DNA of 64,000 nucleotides from a bacterium. Lineage in GTDB: Bacteria; UBA8248. Shown here piece by piece: positions 3,743 through 61,165 of this stretch. The notes under the pieces are model-generated. The model searched no databases and was not told where the DNA came from. It saw nothing but the letters and a program-made list of their open reading frames with translations. The stretch's first letter is position 1, and each line of letters begins with the position of its first letter. The translations under genes and the position numbers were made by a program. The DNA lies in NCBI GenBank assembly GCA_965203325.1, contig OZ241875.1, forward strand, positions 2,592,001 through 2,656,000, given 5' to 3'.

Positions 3743-4783
3743 ATGAGGTGCGCGTGGAAACGAATCAATATCATCATGCTCGTTGCGGTTGTGGCGGTCT
3801 GGGCCTTTGGCGCAGGCGTCTCGGAAGCGGCCAAGCACAAACTCGTCGTGGGATCGGGCGGCGGCAACATCGGGGCGCCCATCCACGTCGCCAAGGTGAA
3901 GGGGTACTTCACGCAAGAAGACCTTGCGATCGAACACAAGATATTCTCCTCCGGCGCGGCCATGGTCGAGGCGCTCGCGGCGGGCGGCGTCGAGTTGGGC
4001 CACTCGGGGGATCTGCCGTTTGTCTCGCTGGCTGCCGCCAACGTGCCCGCATGCATCATCGCCCAGAACGGGCAGGACAAGGATTATCTCGAGATTTTCG
4101 TCGGCAAGGACCTGGGCATGACGAAACCCACCGACTTCTACGGGAAAAAGGTCGGGTTGCGGTTTGCATCCGCGGCCCACATTCTGTGGATCAACTTTCT
4201 TCAAAAATACAACCTGGACGCCAAAAAGATCCGGGTGGTGAACCTGACGCCGAACGATCTCATCGCCGCCTACAAGAACAAGGACGTGGACGGCGGGGTG
4301 GTCTGGTATCCGCATCTGACGACCGCGGAGCAGGTCCGCCCGACGCATTTTGCGCATTCCCAGTTGCTCAACAAGTTCGGCAAAATGGCGAAGCCCGCCA
4401 ACATCCACCTTTCCTTCACCCTCATCAGCGCGCGGAAAGCGGCGCTCAAGAACAAGCCGGACGCCATGAAGGCGTATATGCGGGCGATGCTGAAGTCCTA
4501 CCGGTTCATGAACGATTCGGGAAATCGCGCAGAGTTTCTGAAAATCCTGGGCAAGGCATACAAAATGTCCGCTCCCGCGATGAAACCCATTCTTGACAAC
4601 ACTTTCTACAGGCTTGAGATTACGGATGAAATGGTGAACGCCGAACAAGCGGTGGCCAATAATATGAAACGGGTCGGCAGGAAGCTCAAAAGAACGCCGA
4701 ACATAAGAGAATTCGTCTATACGGATCTCCTGAAGTCGGTCGCGAAGGATCTGGCGAAGACCGAAGGGGCCTGCAAGCTTTAG
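3743..4783 (+). CDS. ABC transporter substrate-binding protein (SsuA/TauA/NMT1-like)
   Basis: Signal peptide; KGYFTQEDL..FSSGAAMVEALAAGGVE pattern; RBS AGGAGG upstream; adjacent ATPase and permeases. Confidence 0.88.
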   Translation: MRCAWKRINIIMLVAVVAVWAFGAGVSEAAKHKLVVGSGGGNIGAPIHVAKVKGYFTQEDLAIEHKIFSSGAAMVEALAAGGVELGHSGDLPFVSLAAANVPACIIAQNGQDKDYLEIFVGKDLGMTKPTDFYGKKVGLRFASAAHILWINFLQKYNLDAKKIRVVNLTPNDLIAAYKNKDVDGGVVWYPHLTTAEQVRPTHFAHSQLLNKFGKMAKPANIHLSFTLISARKAALKNKPDAMKAYMRAMLKSYRFMNDSGNRAEFLKILGKAYKMSAPAMKPILDNTFYRLEITDEMVNAEQAVANNMKRVGRKLKRTPNIREFVYTDLLKSVAKDLAKTEGACKL

Positions 4784-4835
4784 GGGGACAGTCTCACTTT
4801 ACCGGTTTGGGGTGTCTGTATCGTGAACTTCCGAT

Positions 4836-5648
4836 ATGACGGTTAATCTGCAGGTACATCGGGTCTCGAAAGAATTCGTCGACCGGCGCGCCAAGTCTAC
4901 GGTGCGGGCGCTGGATGAAATAAACCTCGAGGTCCAAAAAGGCGAAGTCATCTGCATCCTCGGTCCCAGCGGATGCGGAAAATCCACCCTCCTGAACATC
5001 GTCGCGGGATTCCTCCCCCCCTCGGGGGGGGAGGTTCGCGTCGACGGGCACCCGGTCATCGAGCCGGGGCCCGACCGGGGTTTCGTCTTCCAGGAATTCG
5101 CCCTTTTCCCCTGGCGGACGGTGCTCGAGAATATCGAATTCGGTCCTGTCCTGAAGGGGATGGAAAAGACCGGCCGCCACGCCCGCGCGCGGGAACTCAT
5201 CCAGCGCATCCACCTTACGGGATTCGAGGACAAATACCCCTTCGAGCTTTCGGGCGGAATGAAGCAGCGCGTCGGGATCGCCCGGGCGCTGGCGAACGAT
5301 CCCGAGGTGCTGCTGATGGACGAGCCTTTTGGGGCATTGGACGCCCAGACGCGCCGGGTGATGCAGGAAGAGCTCCTGAAGCTTCTCGGTGAAACGAAGA
5401 AAACCGTCCTCTTCGTGACCCACGCGATCGACGAGGCCATCGTTCTGGCCGACCGGGTGCTGATCATGACGGCCCGCCCCGGCCAGGTGAAGGCCCTTCT
5501 CGGCGTCGACCTCCCCCGTCCCCGGGAGAGGACTTCTCCTGAATTCAACGAACTGTACCGGACGATGGACGACCTCATCCGGGTCGAGGTGGAGAAGGCG
5601 TCGGAAGTGCAGGATTCGGATTCCGCGGCTCCGGGAGAGGGCGCATGA
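4836..5648 (+). CDS. ABC transporter ATP-binding protein (nitrate/sulfonate/taurine type)
   Basis: Walker A GPSGCGKST, LSGGMKQR signature, LLMDEPFGALD. Confidence 0.95.
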   Translation: MTVNLQVHRVSKEFVDRRAKSTVRALDEINLEVQKGEVICILGPSGCGKSTLLNIVAGFLPPSGGEVRVDGHPVIEPGPDRGFVFQEFALFPWRTVLENIEFGPVLKGMEKTGRHARARELIQRIHLTGFEDKYPFELSGGMKQRVGIARALANDPEVLLMDEPFGALDAQTRRVMQEELLKLLGETKKTVLFVTHAIDEAIVLADRVLIMTARPGQVKALLGVDLPRPRERTSPEFNELYRTMDDLIRVEVEKASEVQDSDSAAPGEGA

Positions 5649-6415
5649 ACAGAAGAATGGCGACGCGCGCCGCCTCTATCGGCGGATTGGTTATCCTCTG
5701 GTTCGTGGTTACGCATTACAAACTGGTCAATCCGCTCTTCCTGCCGCCGCCCAGGGAAGTCTGGGAGGGAGCGGTCGATCTTATTCAGGCGGGTGAGTTG
5801 CGGGAACACATTGCCGCCAGCCTATGGCGGATGTTCATGGGTTTCGTCGTCGGCTCCTTCACCGGCGTAGTCATCGGAATCCTGATGGGCCAGTTCCGGT
5901 TCTTCCACGCGGCCGTGGGGCCATTGGTCGAGATCATCCGGCCCATTCCCGGTCTGGCCTGGATCCCGGTGGCCCTTATCTGGTTCGGTATCGAAGACGC
6001 CTCCAAGGTATTCATCATATCCATGGGCGTGTTCCTCGCCGTCGTCACCAATACCTTCGTGGGAGTCCGCTCGCTGGATCCCGTTCTGGTGCGCGCCGCG
6101 CGCAGCCTGGGAGCCAACCGCCGGGACGTTTTCTTCCGCGTGGTCCTTCCCGGAACCCTCCCTCACATCTTCACCGGTTTTCGGCTGGGCGTTCAGGTCT
6201 CCTTCGCCTTGCTGGTCGCGGCGGAGCTGGTGGGTTCCACGTCGGGCCTGGGATTCCTGATCCAGGACGCCCGGAATTATTTCCGCGGGGATTTGGTCAT
6301 CCTGGGCATGGCCGTCATCGGCGCCCTGGGATTCAGCATCACGCGCCTCGTGGAAATCGCGGAGAGGTGGTTTCTCCGCTGGCATTCCACGAGCCGGGAA
6401 GGCGCTTTCTACTAG
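5645..6415 (+). CDS. ABC transporter permease (SsuC/TauC type)
   Basis: RPIPGLAWIP, AARSLGA EAA loop, LVAAEL; ATGA overlap with the ATPase gene. Confidence 0.92.
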   Translation: MNRRMATRAASIGGLVILWFVVTHYKLVNPLFLPPPREVWEGAVDLIQAGELREHIAASLWRMFMGFVVGSFTGVVIGILMGQFRFFHAAVGPLVEIIRPIPGLAWIPVALIWFGIEDASKVFIISMGVFLAVVTNTFVGVRSLDPVLVRAARSLGANRRDVFFRVVLPGTLPHIFTGFRLGVQVSFALLVAAELVGSTSGLGFLIQDARNYFRGDLVILGMAVIGALGFSITRLVEIAERWFLRWHSTSREGAFY

Positions 6416-6423
6416 GAGAGACC

Positions 6424-7197
6424 TTGCAAACGCAATCCGTTTCAGGCCGCTTCGGAATATCCGCCGTCTCGGTGGCGGGCTTCGTCGTCCTCTGGCAGCT
6501 CTCCGTCACCCTCGGGCTGGTGGACCCGCTCATCCTGCCCTCCCCCTGGATGGCCATCCAGTCCGGGATCAGGCGCGCCGAAGGTGGTGAGCTTCTCCGC
6601 CACATCATCGCCTCGGTGCTTCGTATCACCGAGGGGTTCTTCCTGGGCTCCGCCCTGGGCGTCCTGCTCGGTTTGCTCATGGGTCAGGTCCGAATCATCG
6701 GCGATGCGCTCGAACCGATCGTGGACATATTCCGGCAAATTCCCGAGGTTGCGTGGATTCCCCTCGCCATCCTGATGTTCCAGATGGGGGAGGGTTCCAA
6801 GGTTTTCATCATCACCTACGGCGCGTTGTTTCCCGCCATCATCTGCACCTTCGACGGCGTCAGGATGACCGAGCCCGCCATCATCCGCGCGGCGCGCTCC
6901 CTGGGCGCGAGCCGGAGCCAGCTTTTCTGGCGGGTCACGCTGCCCGCCACCCTCCCCCACATCATGACCGGGCTTTGGATCGGACTCGGCTATGCTTTCC
7001 GCGGGCTCATCGCGGCCGAGTTGGCGGGGGCGCAGGAGGGAATCGGGTTCATGATCATGCTGGCGCGCGAAGACAACCTGACCGCGGACGCTTTCATGGG
7101 CATGGCGCTCATCGGGGTGATTGGCTTTTGCGCCATTTACGGCCTGGGCGCTGTCCGCAACCACGTTCTCCGCTGGCACGAGAGCACGCAGGAGTAA
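6424..7197 (+). CDS. Second ABC transporter permease (SsuC/TauC type)
   Basis: C-terminal part of ORF 5824-7197; TTG start at 6424 after GGAGAG; RQIPEVAWIP, AARSLGA, LIAAEL. Confidence 0.88.
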   Translation: MQTQSVSGRFGISAVSVAGFVVLWQLSVTLGLVDPLILPSPWMAIQSGIRRAEGGELLRHIIASVLRITEGFFLGSALGVLLGLLMGQVRIIGDALEPIVDIFRQIPEVAWIPLAILMFQMGEGSKVFIITYGALFPAIICTFDGVRMTEPAIIRAARSLGASRSQLFWRVTLPATLPHIMTGLWIGLGYAFRGLIAAELAGAQEGIGFMIMLAREDNLTADAFMGMALIGVIGFCAIYGLGAVRNHVLRWHESTQE

Positions 7198-41487: not shown

Positions 41488-41668
41488 AAAAGGCCCTTTT
41501 CATGGGGTAGCACCCCTCTCGACTGGAAAGGCAACCCCCCCTACCCCCCCTTGTCAGGGGGGCAAGAAAAAGCAAAACCCCTCAGCCCGGTGGGGGAGCA
41601 TCGCCTTTTTATACCCCCTGACAAGGGGGGGTAGGGGGGGTTGCCTTTATGGGGTTTCCCTTTCAGGG
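41478..41668. mobile_element. MITE/REP-doublet element overlapping the bioF stop codon
   Basis: CGGCTGTTGAAAAAGGCC; CCCCCCCTACCCCCCCTTGTCAGGGGGG / CCCCCTGACAAGGGGGGGTAGGGGGGG; right flank TATGGGGTTTCCCTTTC shared with the 57.6 kb copy. Confidence 0.7.
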
Positions 41669-47554: not shown

Positions 47555-47615
47555 TACTTGGCGGCCCGGATGTGCTCGACACACCTGCCGCGTATGGAAT
47601 CATGAAGGAGAAGCG

Positions 47616-48677
47616 ATGGCGAAGCACAGCATCGGTTTGATACCGGCGGACGGCATCGGGCCCGAAGTCGTCACACAGGCGGTGCGCGTCCTGCGCGCGC
47701 TGGCGAAGAGCGAGCGCGGCCTCGCGTTTTCTTTTACGAAATACCCTTGGGGGAGCGATTTCTATCACGAGACGGGCCGGATGTGCCCGGAGAATTTCCT
47801 GAACCGCGTGAGAAAACACGACGCGATCCTGCTCGGCGCCGTGGGCCGGCCCGACATTCCCGACCACATCACGCTCAACCAGCTCCTGCTTCCGCTGCGC
47901 CGGGGGTTCGACCTCTACGTCAACATGCGGCCCATCGTCCTGTACGAGGGGCTGGAGTCGCCGCTGCGCGGCTACGAGCCGGGAGACATCGACATGCTCT
48001 TCTTCCGCGAGAATACCGAGGGGGAATACAGCCCCATCGGCGGCAGGCACTACGAGGGGCACCCGTCGCAAATGGCGGCCCAGATAACGGTTTTCACGCG
48101 CATGGGCTGTGAGCGCATCATCGAGGCGGCGTTCGAGGCGTCGCTCAAGAGGAAGAAGCACGTCACGAACGTCACAAAATCGAACGCGCAGGGCCACACG
48201 CTGGTGATGTGGGATGAGATTTTCGAGGAAGTCGCGGCCAGACCCCGCTACAGGAAAGTCGAGACGGCGAAGTATCTCGTCGACGCCGCCGCCTTGGAGT
48301 TCGTGAGGAGGCCCGAGCATTTCGACGTCGTGGTGTCCACGAACCTCTTCGGCGACATCCTGACGGACCTGGGCGCCGCCATCGTCGGCGGGCTGGGGGT
48401 CGCCGCGAGCGCCAACACGAATCCCGCCGGCGACGCGCCCGGCCTGTTCGAGCCCGTGCACGGCTCGGCGCCCGACATCATGGGCAAGGGAATCGCCAAC
48501 CCGGTGGCGGCGCTCATTTCCGCCGCCCTGATGCTCGATTACCTGGGCGAGGAGCGCGCGGCGAAGCGGCTCGACGACGCGGTCCGCGCGCATCTGGCTC
48601 ACGGGAACCGGACGGCGGACTTAGGGGGAACCGGGACGACGCGCTCCGTCGCCACCGACGTCATCAAGAGACTCTAG
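47616..48677 (+). CDS. Tartrate dehydrogenase/decarboxylase-like (isocitrate/isopropylmalate dehydrogenase family)
   Basis: ADGIGPEV, RENTEGEY, TKSNA, NLFGDILTDL, FEPVHGSAPDI. Confidence 0.9.
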   Translation: MAKHSIGLIPADGIGPEVVTQAVRVLRALAKSERGLAFSFTKYPWGSDFYHETGRMCPENFLNRVRKHDAILLGAVGRPDIPDHITLNQLLLPLRRGFDLYVNMRPIVLYEGLESPLRGYEPGDIDMLFFRENTEGEYSPIGGRHYEGHPSQMAAQITVFTRMGCERIIEAAFEASLKRKKHVTNVTKSNAQGHTLVMWDEIFEEVAARPRYRKVETAKYLVDAAALEFVRRPEHFDVVVSTNLFGDILTDLGAAIVGGLGVAASANTNPAGDAPGLFEPVHGSAPDIMGKGIANPVAALISAALMLDYLGEERAAKRLDDAVRAHLAHGNRTADLGGTGTTRSVATDVIKRL

Positions 48678-48694: not shown

Positions 48695-49222
48695 ATGTCC
48701 ATCGTCACGAGGAGGGGAGACGACGGGAACACCGATTTGTGGTTCGCCGACAGGGTTCCCAAGTATCATCCCCAGGTGCAGGCCTACGGCGCGCTCGATG
48801 AGGCGAAGGCGGCGCTCGGCCTCGCCCGCTCGACCGCGCCCGAGTGGCTGAAGCCCGAAATCCTCAAAATCCAGAAAGACCTCTACCTCGTGAGCAGCGA
48901 CCTGGCGACGCTGCGGGGCAAGCTCGGCAGGCTCAAAGAGCGCGTGGGCGCAGAGCAGGTCGCGTGGGCCGATGCGCAGGTGGCGCGCTATGAAAAGGAG
49001 ATTCAGATCACCGACTGGGTCATCTCGGGCGACTCGCCCTGCGGCGCCGCGCTGGACATGGCGCTCACCATCATCCGCCGTGGCGAGCGATGGTCGGTGA
49101 AGCTGCGGGACGAAGGCTACATCGACAACCCCGACCTGCTTGTATATCTCAACCGCGTCTCCGACCTCCTCTTCCTGATGGCGCGCGCGGTGGACAGGGG
49201 AGTCGAAGTTCCCGCTGATTAG
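48695..49222 (+). CDS. PduO-type cob(I)alamin adenosyltransferase
   Basis: IVTRRGDDGNT, YGALDE, IRRGER, YLNRVSDLLFLMAR. Confidence 0.92.
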   Translation: MSIVTRRGDDGNTDLWFADRVPKYHPQVQAYGALDEAKAALGLARSTAPEWLKPEILKIQKDLYLVSSDLATLRGKLGRLKERVGAEQVAWADAQVARYEKEIQITDWVISGDSPCGAALDMALTIIRRGERWSVKLRDEGYIDNPDLLVYLNRVSDLLFLMARAVDRGVEVPAD

Positions 49223-49285
49223 ATTCGAAAAACGCGAAACGCTCTACGGGTTTATTCAGCCTTCGTGCTCTGTCTGTAGGACGCT

Positions 49286-50011
49286 ATGCCCCAAAACCAA
49301 TCGTTATCTCCTCAACGCCTCGATGATGTGAAGCGGTTTTACGCTTCTCTCTTTACTCTTGAAGAACGTCTCGGAGGAGCGCGGCGATTGTCCGGTTGCT
49401 CCGGTCGAATGAAATGGCCGAAGCGCGGAATATATTTTTTTATGGAGGAGGGTGAAGTCCGCACCGAAACCGGGGATGGCCCTCGCATCGTGCGGGTCGG
49501 CACACATGCCCTGAAAGCCGGTTCCAAAACCAAACTATGGTCGCGCCTGAAACAGCATAAAGGCACAGTTCGATCCGGCGGCGGCAATCACCGGGGGTCG
49601 ATCTTCAGACTCATCGTGGGAGCGGCCCTGATGCAGAGAGATCGTCTCGATTTTCCCTTCTGGGGCAAGGGCGGCACGGCGCCGCGTGAAGTGAGAAAAC
49701 TCGAACAACCCTTGGAAAGAAAAGTAAGCACGATGATCGGCGACATGCCCTTTCTCTGGCTCGACATCGAGGACGAGCCGGGACCCGACAGCCTGCGCGG
49801 ATACATCGAGCGAAACGCAATCGCCCTGTTGAGCAACTATGGCAAGCATCCCATCGATCCGCCTTCCGCGTCATGGCTCGGCCGTCGTTGCGACAGGGAA
49901 AAAGTGCGGATTTCCGGCCTCTGGAACTCGAACCACGTCGATCAAGACTACGCCCCGGCTTTTCTCGACGTTCTGGAGCGCCTGATCGATGAAATGGAGA
50001 TACCCGCATGA
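49286..50011 (+). CDS. GIY-YIG-like nuclease (hypothetical)
   Basis: GIYFF...IVRVG...LWSRLKQH...GNHRGSIFR...IERNAI..LWN pattern resembles GIY-YIG motif order. Confidence 0.6.
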   Translation: MPQNQSLSPQRLDDVKRFYASLFTLEERLGGARRLSGCSGRMKWPKRGIYFFMEEGEVRTETGDGPRIVRVGTHALKAGSKTKLWSRLKQHKGTVRSGGGNHRGSIFRLIVGAALMQRDRLDFPFWGKGGTAPREVRKLEQPLERKVSTMIGDMPFLWLDIEDEPGPDSLRGYIERNAIALLSNYGKHPIDPPSASWLGRRCDREKVRISGLWNSNHVDQDYAPAFLDVLERLIDEMEIPA

Positions 50012-50661
50012 TCGTCGTCATCCAATGCGCTGCCCGGAAAAATCCCGAAGCCGGGTATTTGCGCATCCGCGACGGACGAAAGGTGATGTTCGTCGCCGAC
50101 CCCGGCCTCGCGACCAACGACTCAAATCTCTCTTTTGCGCGACCGGATGATGTTTCCGACACCGGGAGGCCGTGGCGAACCACCCTCCGTGAATACAATG
50201 CCGAGCCTCGCGGCAACCCGCGCGGCCTTCTTCCCGCCTGGCGGCTTTATGAAAACCCGGTCTACGAACTCTTGAAGAACCATTGCGGGCCGGAGCGACT
50301 CTATATCCTCTCCGCGGGGTGGGGCCTGATTCCGGCCGGTTTCCTGACGCCCGCTTATGACATCACCTTCAGCCCCAGAGCTGACGCGTACAAACGCAGA
50401 CGCAAGAAAGATTCGTATGACGATTTCAACATGCTGCAAGAACAAACAGAGGAAGACATCGTGTTCTTCGGCGGCAAGGACTATGCGGGCCTGTTTTGCG
50501 GGTTGACGCAGAACGTCAAAGGGACGCGATACATCTGGTTCAATTCCAAAAGCCCGCCCAAAGCGACTGGCTGCACGCTTCGGCAGTTCCATACGAAGAC
50601 CAGAACCAACTGGCATTACGAGTGCGCCAAAGCCTTCATCGAAGGAAATATCCAGGTTTAG
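50008..50661 (+). CDS. DUF6884/YaaA-like hypothetical protein
   Basis: IVVIQCAARK, PAWRLY, YILSAGWGLI, YDITF, FFGGKDY; ATGA overlap with the upstream gene. Confidence 0.6.
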   Translation: MIVVIQCAARKNPEAGYLRIRDGRKVMFVADPGLATNDSNLSFARPDDVSDTGRPWRTTLREYNAEPRGNPRGLLPAWRLYENPVYELLKNHCGPERLYILSAGWGLIPAGFLTPAYDITFSPRADAYKRRRKKDSYDDFNMLQEQTEEDIVFFGGKDYAGLFCGLTQNVKGTRYIWFNSKSPPKATGCTLRQFHTKTRTNWHYECAKAFIEGNIQV

Positions 50662-50681
50662 ACGAGGATGCGGACGATTTG

Positions 50682-50808
50682 GCTCACCATCATCCGACGG
50701 GGTGAGCGATGGTCGGTGAAGCTGCGGGACGAGGGCTACATCGACAACCCCGACCTCCTCTTCCTGATGGCGCGCGCGGTGGACCGGGGCGTCGAAGTGC
50801 CCGCATGA
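50682..50808 (+). pseudogene. Displaced duplicate of the adenosyltransferase 3' end
   Basis: Near-identical to 49063-49215; synonymous differences and a 30-nt in-frame deletion between CCGACCT repeats. Confidence 0.9.
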
Positions 50809-50812
50809 GCGG

Positions 50813-51296
50813 CCTTTGAAAAAGCCCTCTCCTCAGGGGATAAAGGCAACCCCCCCTACCCCCCCTTGTCAGGGGGGCAAGAAAAAACAAAACCCCCGCT
50901 GTCGGCGTCTGGTGTTGCCTTTTTATACCCCCCTGACAAGGGGGGGTAGGGGGGGTTGGTTTTGTAGGGACAGGCCCCCGTGCCTGTCCGAGGTTCCCAC
51001 GAGGCAGTGCGGTTTTGTTCGTCATCCCGGCAATCAATGCCGACTGAGGAGGGAGGGATTGCCCGGAATCCAGAGACTTTGTTTTTGAATTTGCCTTTTC
51101 GCTTAATCGTTTTTCTTGGCCTTTCTGTGATTCGGTATCCCCGTCTGCTCTGGATTCCGGCATGCGCCGGAATGACGAACCAAGGCGGATGACGTGTGTG
51201 CCTGTAGGGGTCGTTCGCGAACGACCCCTACGATCAGGTTGACGAACAACCAGAACCGGGCGGACACACGGTCAGACATATATGTCTGACCCCTAC
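50813..51296. repeat. Composite REP cluster (CCCCCCTACC doublet, GTAG and CGTC palindromes)
   Basis: CCTTTGAAAAAGCCC; doublet at about 50850-50955; GTAGGGACAGGCCCCCGTGCCTGTCC; TGGATTCCGGCATGCGCCGGAATGACG; GTAGGGGTCGTTCGCGAACGACCCCTAC; GGTCAGACATATATGTCTGACCCCTAC. Confidence 0.8.
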
Positions 51297-57397: not shown

Positions 57398-57641
57398 GGG
57401 GGCTGTTGAGAAAGTTCTCGTCGGGGGATATTGCCTTTAGGGGGAAGGTCGATTTCGCGCGAACCCCCGACCTCCCTCTTTGAAAGCAACCCCCCCTACC
57501 CCCCCTTGTCAGGGGGGTATAAAAAGGCGATGCGCCCCCGCCGGGCTGAGGGGTTTTGCTTTTTCTTGCCCCCCTGACAAGGGGGGGTAGGGGGGGGTGA
57601 CGTTATGGGGTTTCCCTTTCAAGGGCTTTCTCAACAACCCC
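57398..57641. mobile_element. MITE-like element with CCCCCCTACC REP doublet
   Basis: GGGGGCTGTTGAGAAAG ... GGCTTTCTCAACAACCCC; interior inverted pair. Confidence 0.75.
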
Positions 57642-59337: not shown

Positions 59338-59508
59338 GCTCACGAACAACTACAGCCCTCAAAAAATGAAAATCAAGAATCTGGTTGCGCAATCGCGCAG
59401 ATATTTCGTTATTTGATCGCATTCATCCGGCGCTACCATTGTCTTTTCGCAATCGTTGAAATATCATTCAGGAGTTCATTTGAACTTCAAGGAGCTTGGG
59501 TGGTGCCT

Positions 59509-60234
59509 ATGGGAAATGAATCTCCATATAAGTTGGTTGGCAGGGGAATTTACACACCCGCCGAAGCCGCCTTTTATGCGCGTGTCCAGACGCGTCTCAT
59601 CAACAGATGGTTTTTCGGAAACAAGCAGGGTGAAAAAATATTTTCTCCCGAATTGGAGTTGAAAGACGAGCGGGTAATTTCATTTCTTGATTTCGTTCAA
59701 ATGTTGGCCGTTCGAGAATTGCGTTACAAGTATAAAGTTCCGCTGCAGAATATCCGTGATGGCATCCAAGAGTTTCAAGACAGATACGGGATCGGTCATC
59801 CTTTTGCGCGTGAGCATGTGGCCTACCTGTTTCAAAAGACCCTTTATATTCGCCAACAGGATGAATCCGAGGACAATATTTACACTGCTGTATCCGGCAA
59901 TTCTAAAGGTCAATATGCTTTGAGGCGGGTTGTCGAAGTTTATATGCAGGACCTGAAATTCAAGCCCGATGGATTGGTAGAGTTCTATACTGCATTTAGT
60001 CGACCTTATAAAAACAAGGTCAAGAAGATTGTTTTGCATCCAGAAAAAAGATTTGGTGAGCCGTTAGTGGAATCGTGTGGGATCACGCCACAAACGCTTT
60101 ATGAAGCCAGTATTACGGAAGGAAGCATCGAAGCTGCTGCCGATATGTATGAGGTTGAGCCTGAAGATGTGGATATTGCTTGTAGATATATCGATCACTT
60201 AACACCATCGACAGCACACAACATAGCCGCGTGA
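59509..60234 (+). CDS. HTH plus DUF433 antitoxin (VapB45-like)
   Basis: GIYTPAEAAFY N-terminal HTH, ISFLDFVQ, HPFA, C-terminal P.KRFGEPLV..GI; low GC; start could be GTG 59500 or 59503. Confidence 0.78.
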   Translation: MGNESPYKLVGRGIYTPAEAAFYARVQTRLINRWFFGNKQGEKIFSPELELKDERVISFLDFVQMLAVRELRYKYKVPLQNIRDGIQEFQDRYGIGHPFAREHVAYLFQKTLYIRQQDESEDNIYTAVSGNSKGQYALRRVVEVYMQDLKFKPDGLVEFYTAFSRPYKNKVKKIVLHPEKRFGEPLVESCGITPQTLYEASITEGSIEAAADMYEVEPEDVDIACRYIDHLTPSTAHNIAA

Positions 60235-60665
60235 GAAACTCCCTCAAATTGTTTTTCGATGAGAATATCGGCGCGCGCCTTTACAGAGCGATTTCAGCTT
60301 TATTGAAACTCTCGAAAACCAGAAATATAGAAACTGCGCACCTGATTGTTGATTATTCTGGAGAAGGTTTGCGAGATGAGTCCTGGGTGCCAAGACTTGC
60401 CGGTGAAGGTTGGATAGTTATCTCTGCTGACAGAGGTTCTGGTAGTCGAAGAAAGGGCACGCCCTTGCCTATTATGTGCAGGGAGAATGGCATTACTCAT
60501 GTATTGATAAGTGGAAAACTTCACAATAAAGAGCAGTTGGAGAAGGCATGTGCGATTTTAGACGTAAGGGAAAAGCTGTATGAATTGGACGATGCGCCCA
60601 AAGGTACGCGTTATTTGCTTTATGCGGGCCCGGGCAACTCCGCAGCCAGACTCAAGAAAAAGTAA
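60231..60665 (+). CDS. PIN-like toxin (VapC45/PIN_10-like)
   Basis: FFDENIG, G..DESW, WIVISADR; GTGA overlap with the antitoxin. Confidence 0.78.
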   Translation: MRNSLKLFFDENIGARLYRAISALLKLSKTRNIETAHLIVDYSGEGLRDESWVPRLAGEGWIVISADRGSGSRRKGTPLPIMCRENGITHVLISGKLHNKEQLEKACAILDVREKLYELDDAPKGTRYLLYAGPGNSAARLKKK

Positions 60666-60697: not shown

Positions 60698-61165
60698 TTA
60701 CTTCTTCGCCATGCGCAGCACTTCGTCGAATTCCTTTTTCGTCACAGGCTGAACGCTCAGGCGCTGGCCTCGCTGGGTGACGCGCATCTCGGCGAGCCTG
60801 GGATTTTCTTTCAGTTCATTGAGCGAGACGGGCCGGGGGAGTTTTTCCATCGCCTGCAGATCCACCATCTGCCAGCGCGGGGCGTCGGCGGGGGCTTTCG
60901 GGTCGTAGTACTTGGATTTCTTGTCGTATTGGGTGTGATCGGGATACGACTCCCGCGCCACCCGCGCGGTGCCCGCCACATGGGGCGGCTTCGTGCTCGA
61001 ATGGTAGAAGAGAACGTAGTCGTCCACCTTCATCTCCATCATGAAATTTCTGGCCTGGTAGTTTCGGATGCCGTCCCAGCAGGCGGTCTGCTCGGGCTCC
61101 GCCATCAGGTCGTCGAACGAGTATGCGTCCGGTTCGCTCTTCATGAGCCAGTATTTTCGGGCCAT
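60698..61165 (-). CDS. EVE domain protein
   Basis: YWLMKSEP, WDGIRNYQARN, FYHS, YYDPK, RLSVQPV. Confidence 0.95.
   Translation of the reverse strand: MARKYWLMKSEPDAYSFDDLMAEPEQTACWDGIRNYQARNFMMEMKVDDYVLFYHSSTKPPHVAGTARVARESYPDHTQYDKKSKYYDPKAPADAPRWQMVDLQAMEKLPRPVSLNELKENPRLAEMRVTQRGQRLSVQPVTKKEFDEVLRMAKK

Follow-up and report, generated by a model that had tools for sequence, protein, structure and literature searches.

The window, by which is meant the whole stretch of 64,000 nucleotides that was analysed (contig OZ241875.1, positions 2,592,001 to 2,656,000), carries a cassette of two genes behind an intact host gene of the pduO type (Table 1). As had been predicted from the sequence, the two genes are translationally coupled, their open reading frames overlapping in an ATGA (50008-50011), and their codon style is unlike that of the neighbours: GC3 is 0.63 for gene 1 and 0.71 for gene 2 versus 0.80-0.88 for the neighbours (12 in-frame genes; two out-of-frame rows and a low-GC gene at 59.5 kb were excluded). 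Each of the two genes is present in the genome as a single copy. A sigma70-like promoter match (47576-47603) precedes the dehydrogenase-family gene, which is the first host gene of the run, and no promoter or terminator match was found in the 63-bp spacer before gene 1. Read-through from the dehydrogenase-family gene into the cassette is likely.

Table 1. Features around the two-gene cassette (positions in the window)
Feature	Position	Strand	Remarks
Isocitrate/isopropylmalate dehydrogenase-family gene	47616..48677	+	PF00180, E 1.3e-93
pduO-type cob(I)alamin adenosyltransferase, intact host gene	48695..49222	+	PF01923, E 3.8e-42; TIGR00636 above cut-off
Upstream copy of the ~153-bp direct repeat (pduO 3' end)	49063..49215	+
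Cassette-specific spacer, 63 bp	49223..49285	+	Missing from empty-site relatives
Gene 1, GIY-YIG-fold putative nuclease, PDC-M57B family	49286..50011	+	241 aa
Gene 2, long-form YaaA/DUF6884/DpdC-like, putative base reader	50008..50661	+	217 aa
Right junction	50662..50681	+	Common to the four repeat-bearing genomes
Downstream, decaying copy of the pduO 3' end	50682..50809	+	30-bp deletion
Palindromic dispersed repeat, 126 bp	50840..50965

The 126-bp palindromic repeat, MITE- or REP-like by its appearance, folds as a long hairpin (-92 kcal/mol) and occurs at 164 loci genome-wide, within the window also at 41528-41650 and 57483-57606. It lies outside the cassette, because two genomes (G010 and G016) have it at the empty site. 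At the pduO site it is accompanied by other short repeats that differ among sister genomes. Farther downstream in the window (59413-60665) there is a two-gene unit of low GC content (45%), in which the gene for a DUF433-like protein (E 0.0015, below the cut-off; no PADLOC match at 1e-8) overlaps an ORF of 144 aa that we take to be PIN-like; the unit is a probable toxin-antitoxin pair. The ORF at 60698-61165 may, to judge from a motif, encode an EVE-domain protein.

The duplicated pduO end and the fate of the cassette in the genus

The host gene whose end had been said to lie on both sides of the cassette is pduO. Its 3' end is duplicated (49063-49215 versus 50682-50804) with 94-95% identity over two blocks. 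The junction of cassette and repeat is no assembly artefact, since it is found in contigs of other sequencing runs (X7 record 26, X5 record 21, X2 record 15), which fit a chromosomal repeat and an excised circle alike.

Among 23 genomes of the genus, eight have the cassette behind pduO, including one with a frameshifted gene 1 and one with a remnant; 14 genomes are without it and one is cut at the site. The cassette is accompanied by the repeat in four genomes (G000, G011, G012, G020) and is found without it in two. Genome G022 has lost gene 1 and kept gene 2. This patchy presence supports the predicted mobility. The four repeat-bearing genomes have one common junction, the sequence beyond each downstream pduO copy agrees with that of the empty allele in relatives, and a tree of rpoB from 22 genomes places carriers beside sisters whose site is empty: G011 with G010 (100), G000/G012 with G016 (99), G022 with G007 (100) and G005 with G003 (100). 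The shared junction together with the interleaved empty-site relatives suggests that gain and loss of the cassette go by way of the duplicated pduO end, with homologous recombination and without an integrase; indeed, no recombinase is encoded in the cassette unit. It is likely that the cassette inserted once behind pduO, that one event created the repeat, and that recombination across its 153 bp then led repeatedly to loss or re-entry; gain and loss are indistinguishable from these data.

Flanking repeats are not a general trait of such cassettes. Outside the genus a comparable repeat directly borders the cassette only at locus L019, and shorter flanking repeats are found at L010 and L055. In another genome of the genus (G006, locus L103) about 1.2 kb of unrelated DNA lies at the same site downstream of pduO, which suggests a cargo hotspot.

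A fixed site and repeated gain and loss would also be expected of a selfish, homing-type element whose nuclease cuts the empty pduO site so that the cassette is copied in, and gene 1 has its GIY-YIG fold in common with I-TevI. However, other lineages use unrelated sites, the target sequence is duplicated and not disrupted, and of 78 testable loci only a few have a flanking repeat that adjoins the cassette, so that homing is highly improbable.

Folds and conserved residues of the two proteins

Gene 1 matches the PADLOC profile PDC-M57B (PDLC04714) at model positions 3-234 of 238 with E 1.5e-88. Its family comprises 6053 proteins at E <= 0.001, and PF26468 was found on 120/120 of the homologues among the matches listed. 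Pfam, NCBIfam and PDB sequence searches with gene 1 itself gave no useful match, and its predicted model (pLDDT 85) found nothing at E <= 0.001 with Foldseek. In a structural search with this model the top 7 of 32 rows were all GIY-YIG proteins. The best match was T4 EndoII (Z 5.7, rmsd 3.9, 111 aligned) and the second UvrC-N (Z 4.8); the matches include I-TevI (Z 4.4), the 5hmC-specific PD-T4-3 (Z 4.2), Eco29kI (Z 3.6), Hpy188I (Z 2.6) and the N-terminal domain of a plant glutaredoxin (Z 4.8), which we take to be a GIY-YIG domain. The next unrelated row had a Z-score of 2.5. These middling but concordant scores support GIY-YIG as the core fold of the predicted model.

The residues from whose order a GIY-YIG protein had been predicted are indeed present (G48-I49-Y50, V69-R70-V71-G72, R87..H91, E175 and N214). 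In the best 150 of 2775 representatives, which are diverse, seven of them are kept in 95-99%: Y50 (144/146), R70 (142/149), G72 (148/149), R87 (147/149), H91 (145/148), E175 (139/147) and N214 (134/136). The GIY tyrosine, the YIG glycine, the helix arginine, the metal-binding glutamate and the asparagine would be Y50, G72, R87, E175 and N214, an assignment from order and motif rather than from residue-level superposition. The tyrosine of YIG is absent, its place being taken by Arg70; in the active Hpy188I a lysine is described at this position, which is a precedent for a basic residue (PMC3045582). We infer that gene 1 encodes a nuclease.

Gene 2 carries the motifs C7xxxK11, L80-Y81, ILSAGWGLI (100-108) and Y117-D118, which had been read as those of a DUF6884/YaaA-type protein. 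Its profile matches are weak: DUF6884 (PF21818) with E 4.4e-5 and 24.1 bits, under the Pfam cut-off of 30; PDC-M57A with E 2.9e-5 at positions 23-107 of 138; and DpdC with E 7e-5 over about 40 of 300+ model positions. PDB sequence searches gave chance matches only, and the ESM Atlas led to clusters without names, 10-22% of whose members bear DUF6884. The predicted model (pLDDT 94) had E. coli YaaA (5caj) as top fold match (Z 6.7, rmsd 5.2, 163 aligned). YaaA was also closest in Foldseek (E 5.7e-3), where again nothing was found at E <= 0.001. A Z-score of 6.7 is middling, and it supports a YaaA/DUF6884 fold for the model. For both proteins the structural search thus led to folds related to those expected and not to unrelated ones. 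C7 (119/119), K11 (118/118) and S102 (120/120) are invariant, and the cysteine presumably has a functional role.

In a tree of 54 rows gene 2 falls into a long clade (100/98), separate from a clade of short DUF6884 proteins (96/97). The other groups are a third YaaA-like group and domains that are DpdC or fused to DpdA. The long form is not placed as sister of DpdC, the relations between the groups being an open fork, and the long-form profile gives 41.6 bits for both a Dpd-fused domain and a short DUF6884. CxxxK is kept in 54/54 rows, among them a canonical DpdC adjoining DpdB (L160) and DpdA-fused domains from que clusters of haloarchaea, cyanobacteria and Paenibacillus; together with SAGxG-type motifs it is common to gene 2 and 8/8 DpdC or Dpd-cluster domains. 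Gene 2 also resembles DpdC in a PxY motif, in LY and in an insert after CxxxK. It represents a distinct long subfamily that is absent from the PADLOC catalogue.

Partners, fusions and neighbours

The cassette had been put forward as a candidate undescribed system. This it is not, because PADLOC already lists the pair as the predicted candidate PDC-M57, of which gene 1 matches the B profile strongly and gene 2 the A profile only weakly. In PADLOC-DB 2.0 this entry belongs to the PDC set of Payne et al. (bioRxiv 10.1101/2024.01.29.577857), predicted candidates that were defined by lying within BREX, DISARM or type I RM loci. The main text of that paper does not name PDC-M57, and a search of openly accessible literature found no study of this gene pair and no mention of PDC-M57. 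The cassette is a variant of this candidate: the PDC-M57B gene is matched near full length and the partner has the DUF6884/YaaA fold, but the partner is of the 217-aa long subfamily instead of the 138-aa PDC-M57A type, has an insert of ~65 aa and is encoded downstream, whereas the short form is upstream in the loci seen.

The two genes also occur together elsewhere. In the best 80 of 576 genome loci, a set skewed to close relatives, a long gene 2 lies within about 400 bp of gene 1, or is fused to it, at 75 loci. At 73 of them it follows gene 1 on the same strand, in a few cases split or truncated by a contig end; at one it is fused and at one inverted. At the other five of the 80 gene 1 is without an intact partner nearby, two of these five holding short remnants. 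In an even sample of 401 genomes (the class of G102) gene 1 is present in 12 (about 3%), with the short partner in six, the long in two, of which one is the sample's own centre, the third form in two and none seen in two. Fifteen viral-contig loci have gene 1, with the short partner at 10, the long at one and none seen at four; in the annotated phage collection gene 1 had no match. Across lineages no third gene was seen to be conserved with the pair.

Of the best 150 of 2775 gene 1 representatives, 67 are at least 300 aa long; in 39 of the 67 gene 1 is joined to a YaaA-like domain (short 29, third form six, long four). The fusion partner in three representatives is the N-terminal domain of ScoMcrA, a type IV enzyme, and relatives fused to DUF7662 also exist. 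Both genes are under purifying selection as judged from dN/dS, which is 0.15-0.37 in 30/30 pairs (both genes, six genomes); dS of the cassette genes exceeds that of the adjacent host gene in every pair compared.

Some loci deserve mention in their own right. At L064:5829-7805 gene 1 and a long gene 2 form a natural fusion of 658 aa, and at L019:6375-8696 a gene 1 copy ends an open frame of 773 aa. L007 and L017 (about 4000-6500) have an extra long-form gene 2 about 3.3 kb upstream of the cassette, which at L007 adjoins Thoeris-like TIR and SLOG genes. At L016 a long-form cassette is followed, after about 800 bp, by a third-form YaaA-like gene (L016:10164-11195), so that two partner types are found at one locus. 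On Roseomonas plasmids (L147:6001-6672) a long gene 2 lies beside an HNH gene and a DUF1156 gene; these plasmid records have no gene 1 match.

For the neighbourhoods, 230 flanking ORFs at 57 loci were chosen by a crude script; 150 were scanned with Pfam, and the remaining 80 plus 26 chosen ones with PADLOC. Defence genes were seen near some of the loci: at 17/57 (a raw count made by reading annotations) there are, no more than about 3.5 kb away, genes of defence or restriction, such as Thoeris-like, type I, ISP and III RM, GmrSD, Avs2 and AbiE genes and others, and one of the 17 sits among type I RM-like genes. The other 40, window included, have no clear defence neighbour: many are flanked by genes for transposases, integrases or toxin-antitoxin systems, and the remainder, to which the window belongs, by housekeeping genes. 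A sulfur-binding-like motif in P0256 and a nitrilase-like fold in P0278/P0283, both tentative labels, were not confirmed by the searches.

The frequency of toxin-antitoxin and AbiE genes among the neighbours, as well as the coupling of the two genes, could mean that gene 1 is a toxic nuclease that is restrained by gene 2 and freed when infection occurs or the cassette is lost. The retention of gene 2 in G022 after loss of gene 1, and on Roseomonas plasmids with no gene 1 nearby, points in the same direction. Such a toxin-antitoxin or abortive infection function is nevertheless unlikely: single-chain fusions are frequent, some loci have an intact gene 1 without partner, sister genomes show many clean losses, and the cleft of gene 2 is invariant and enzyme-like.

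TGT and deazaguanine genes, which had been named as neighbours to look for, and dpd or que genes were found beside the cassette at none of the 57 loci. DpdA was matched in 0/23 genomes of the genus (the cassette's own genome is 95% complete), and a full DpdC in 0/50 cassette genomes, 0/50 genomes of the same phylum and 1/401 of the background sample. The 38 weak DpdC matches in cassette genomes span only model positions about 32-116, partial as is expected for gene 2-type proteins. A Dpd system requires dpdA and dpdB together with dpdC, a combination not found here. There is no methyltransferase inside the two-gene unit, though gene 2 itself could modify DNA. In that case gene 2, which has the same motifs as the modifying enzyme DpdC, might mark self DNA and gene 1 cut what is unmarked, as in restriction-modification. 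This is very unlikely, however, since DpdC depends on preQ0 inserted by DpdA and DpdB, and neither DpdA in the genus nor dpd/que genes beside the cassette were seen.

A putative modification-dependent restriction system

The original prediction of a nuclease paired with a modified-base sensor is also our best explanation, while its alternative of a DNA-modification role is disfavoured by the lack of TGT/deazaguanine genes beside the 57 loci. We consider the chances somewhat better than even that the cassette is a modification-dependent, type IV-like restriction system. Gene 2 would bind invading DNA and inspect it for a non-standard base, which may flip into the CxxxK/SAGxG cleft, and the GIY-YIG nuclease would then cut the inspected DNA, the two proteins cooperating in an anti-phage role. 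The system is type IV-like by architecture; by membership it is PDC-M57B with a non-canonical partner. In favour of restriction are the folds of both predicted models, the conserved catalytic-type residues, the motifs shared with DpdC, the tight linkage of the two genes and their fusions, the fusions to the ScoMcrA domain, the signs of purifying selection, the defence or restriction neighbours at 17/57 loci and the patchy occurrence at a single site. Against it are the middling Z-scores (5.7 and 6.7) without a significant Foldseek match, the open fork in which the long form is not sister to DpdC, the 40/57 loci without a clear defence neighbour, and gene 1 without partner in 5/80 loci and 2/12 genomes of the even sample.

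Type IV restriction by a GIY-YIG nuclease with a modification-sensing partner domain is described for CMoRE / PD-T4-3, which differs from the cassette in being a single protein with 5hmC and 5ghmC as targets (PMC12923530); the likeness in fold is in the GIY-YIG part and weak (Z 4.2). The most specific candidate target would be a 7-deazaguanine (preQ0, ADG or archaeosine), since among the relatives of gene 2 that were found only DpdC has been characterised biochemically, and it acts on preQ0 in DNA; this is a guess that may well be wrong. DpdC is reported to convert preQ0-DNA to ADG-DNA (PMC10164549) and is annotated as DUF328 or DUF6884 (PMC12839542, PMC12235509). Unlike DpdC of Dpd systems, gene 2 is without DpdA, DpdB and preQ0 genes, is coupled to a nuclease and belongs to a separate clade. 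Defence against 7-deazaguanine phages is a real niche, as described for the glycosylases Dag1 and Dag2 with named modified phages and an unmodified escape mutant (bioRxiv 10.1101/2025.10.29.685425), which are single genes of the HhH glycosylase fold without a GIY-YIG nuclease. Against a reading specific for 7-deazaguanine are the reported enrichment of YfjM on lesions and the finding that, of seven phage DUF6884 genes inspected, only three lie beside TGT, DpdA or DndB genes. In Myxococcus phage Mx4 (L154:4199-5605) DUF6884 is in frame with a DndB/DpdB-like domain, and the annotated start appears to trim the DUF6884 N-terminus.

Gene 2 has the fold of E. coli YaaA and B. subtilis YfjM, which stand alone and are linked to oxidative stress or DNA lesions. 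YfjM (DUF6884) is reported to be enriched on abasic sites and ribonucleotide lesions (PMC10220248), and the Pfam curators propose a repair role for DUF6884 and model base flipping (PMC11701544). With UvrC-N as second fold match of gene 1, the pair might process lesions, gene 2 binding abasic sites or embedded ribonucleotides and gene 1 incising beside them in a UvrC-like manner, be it as accessory repair or in finishing DNA made abasic by a glycosylase. We regard this as rather doubtful in view of the patchy gain and loss within one genus, the foreign codon usage, the presence in only about 3% of the even sample, the fusions to a type IV restriction domain and uvrB adjoining the cassette in only 1/57 loci.

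If modification-dependent restriction is the function, it is possible, though only tentatively proposed, that the DpdC "writer" fold has turned into a reader: the invariant cysteine of CxxxK would attack or trap the nitrile of preQ0, or a related 7-deazaguanine, in phage DNA and license the GIY-YIG cut, the three YaaA-like subfamilies would serve as exchangeable specificity modules, and the cassette would toggle in and out of the end of a housekeeping gene through a short repeat without an integrase. As the pair itself is already catalogued, it is the mechanism and the long subfamily, which is unlisted, that give the finding its value. Phage DNA is protected from ordinary restriction by 7-deazaguanine and other base modifications. 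If the proposal is true, a widespread nuclease family that reads bases via a DpdC/YaaA fold would be a new type of reader, DUF6884 would gain a function, and the protein may become a reagent for mapping modified bases.
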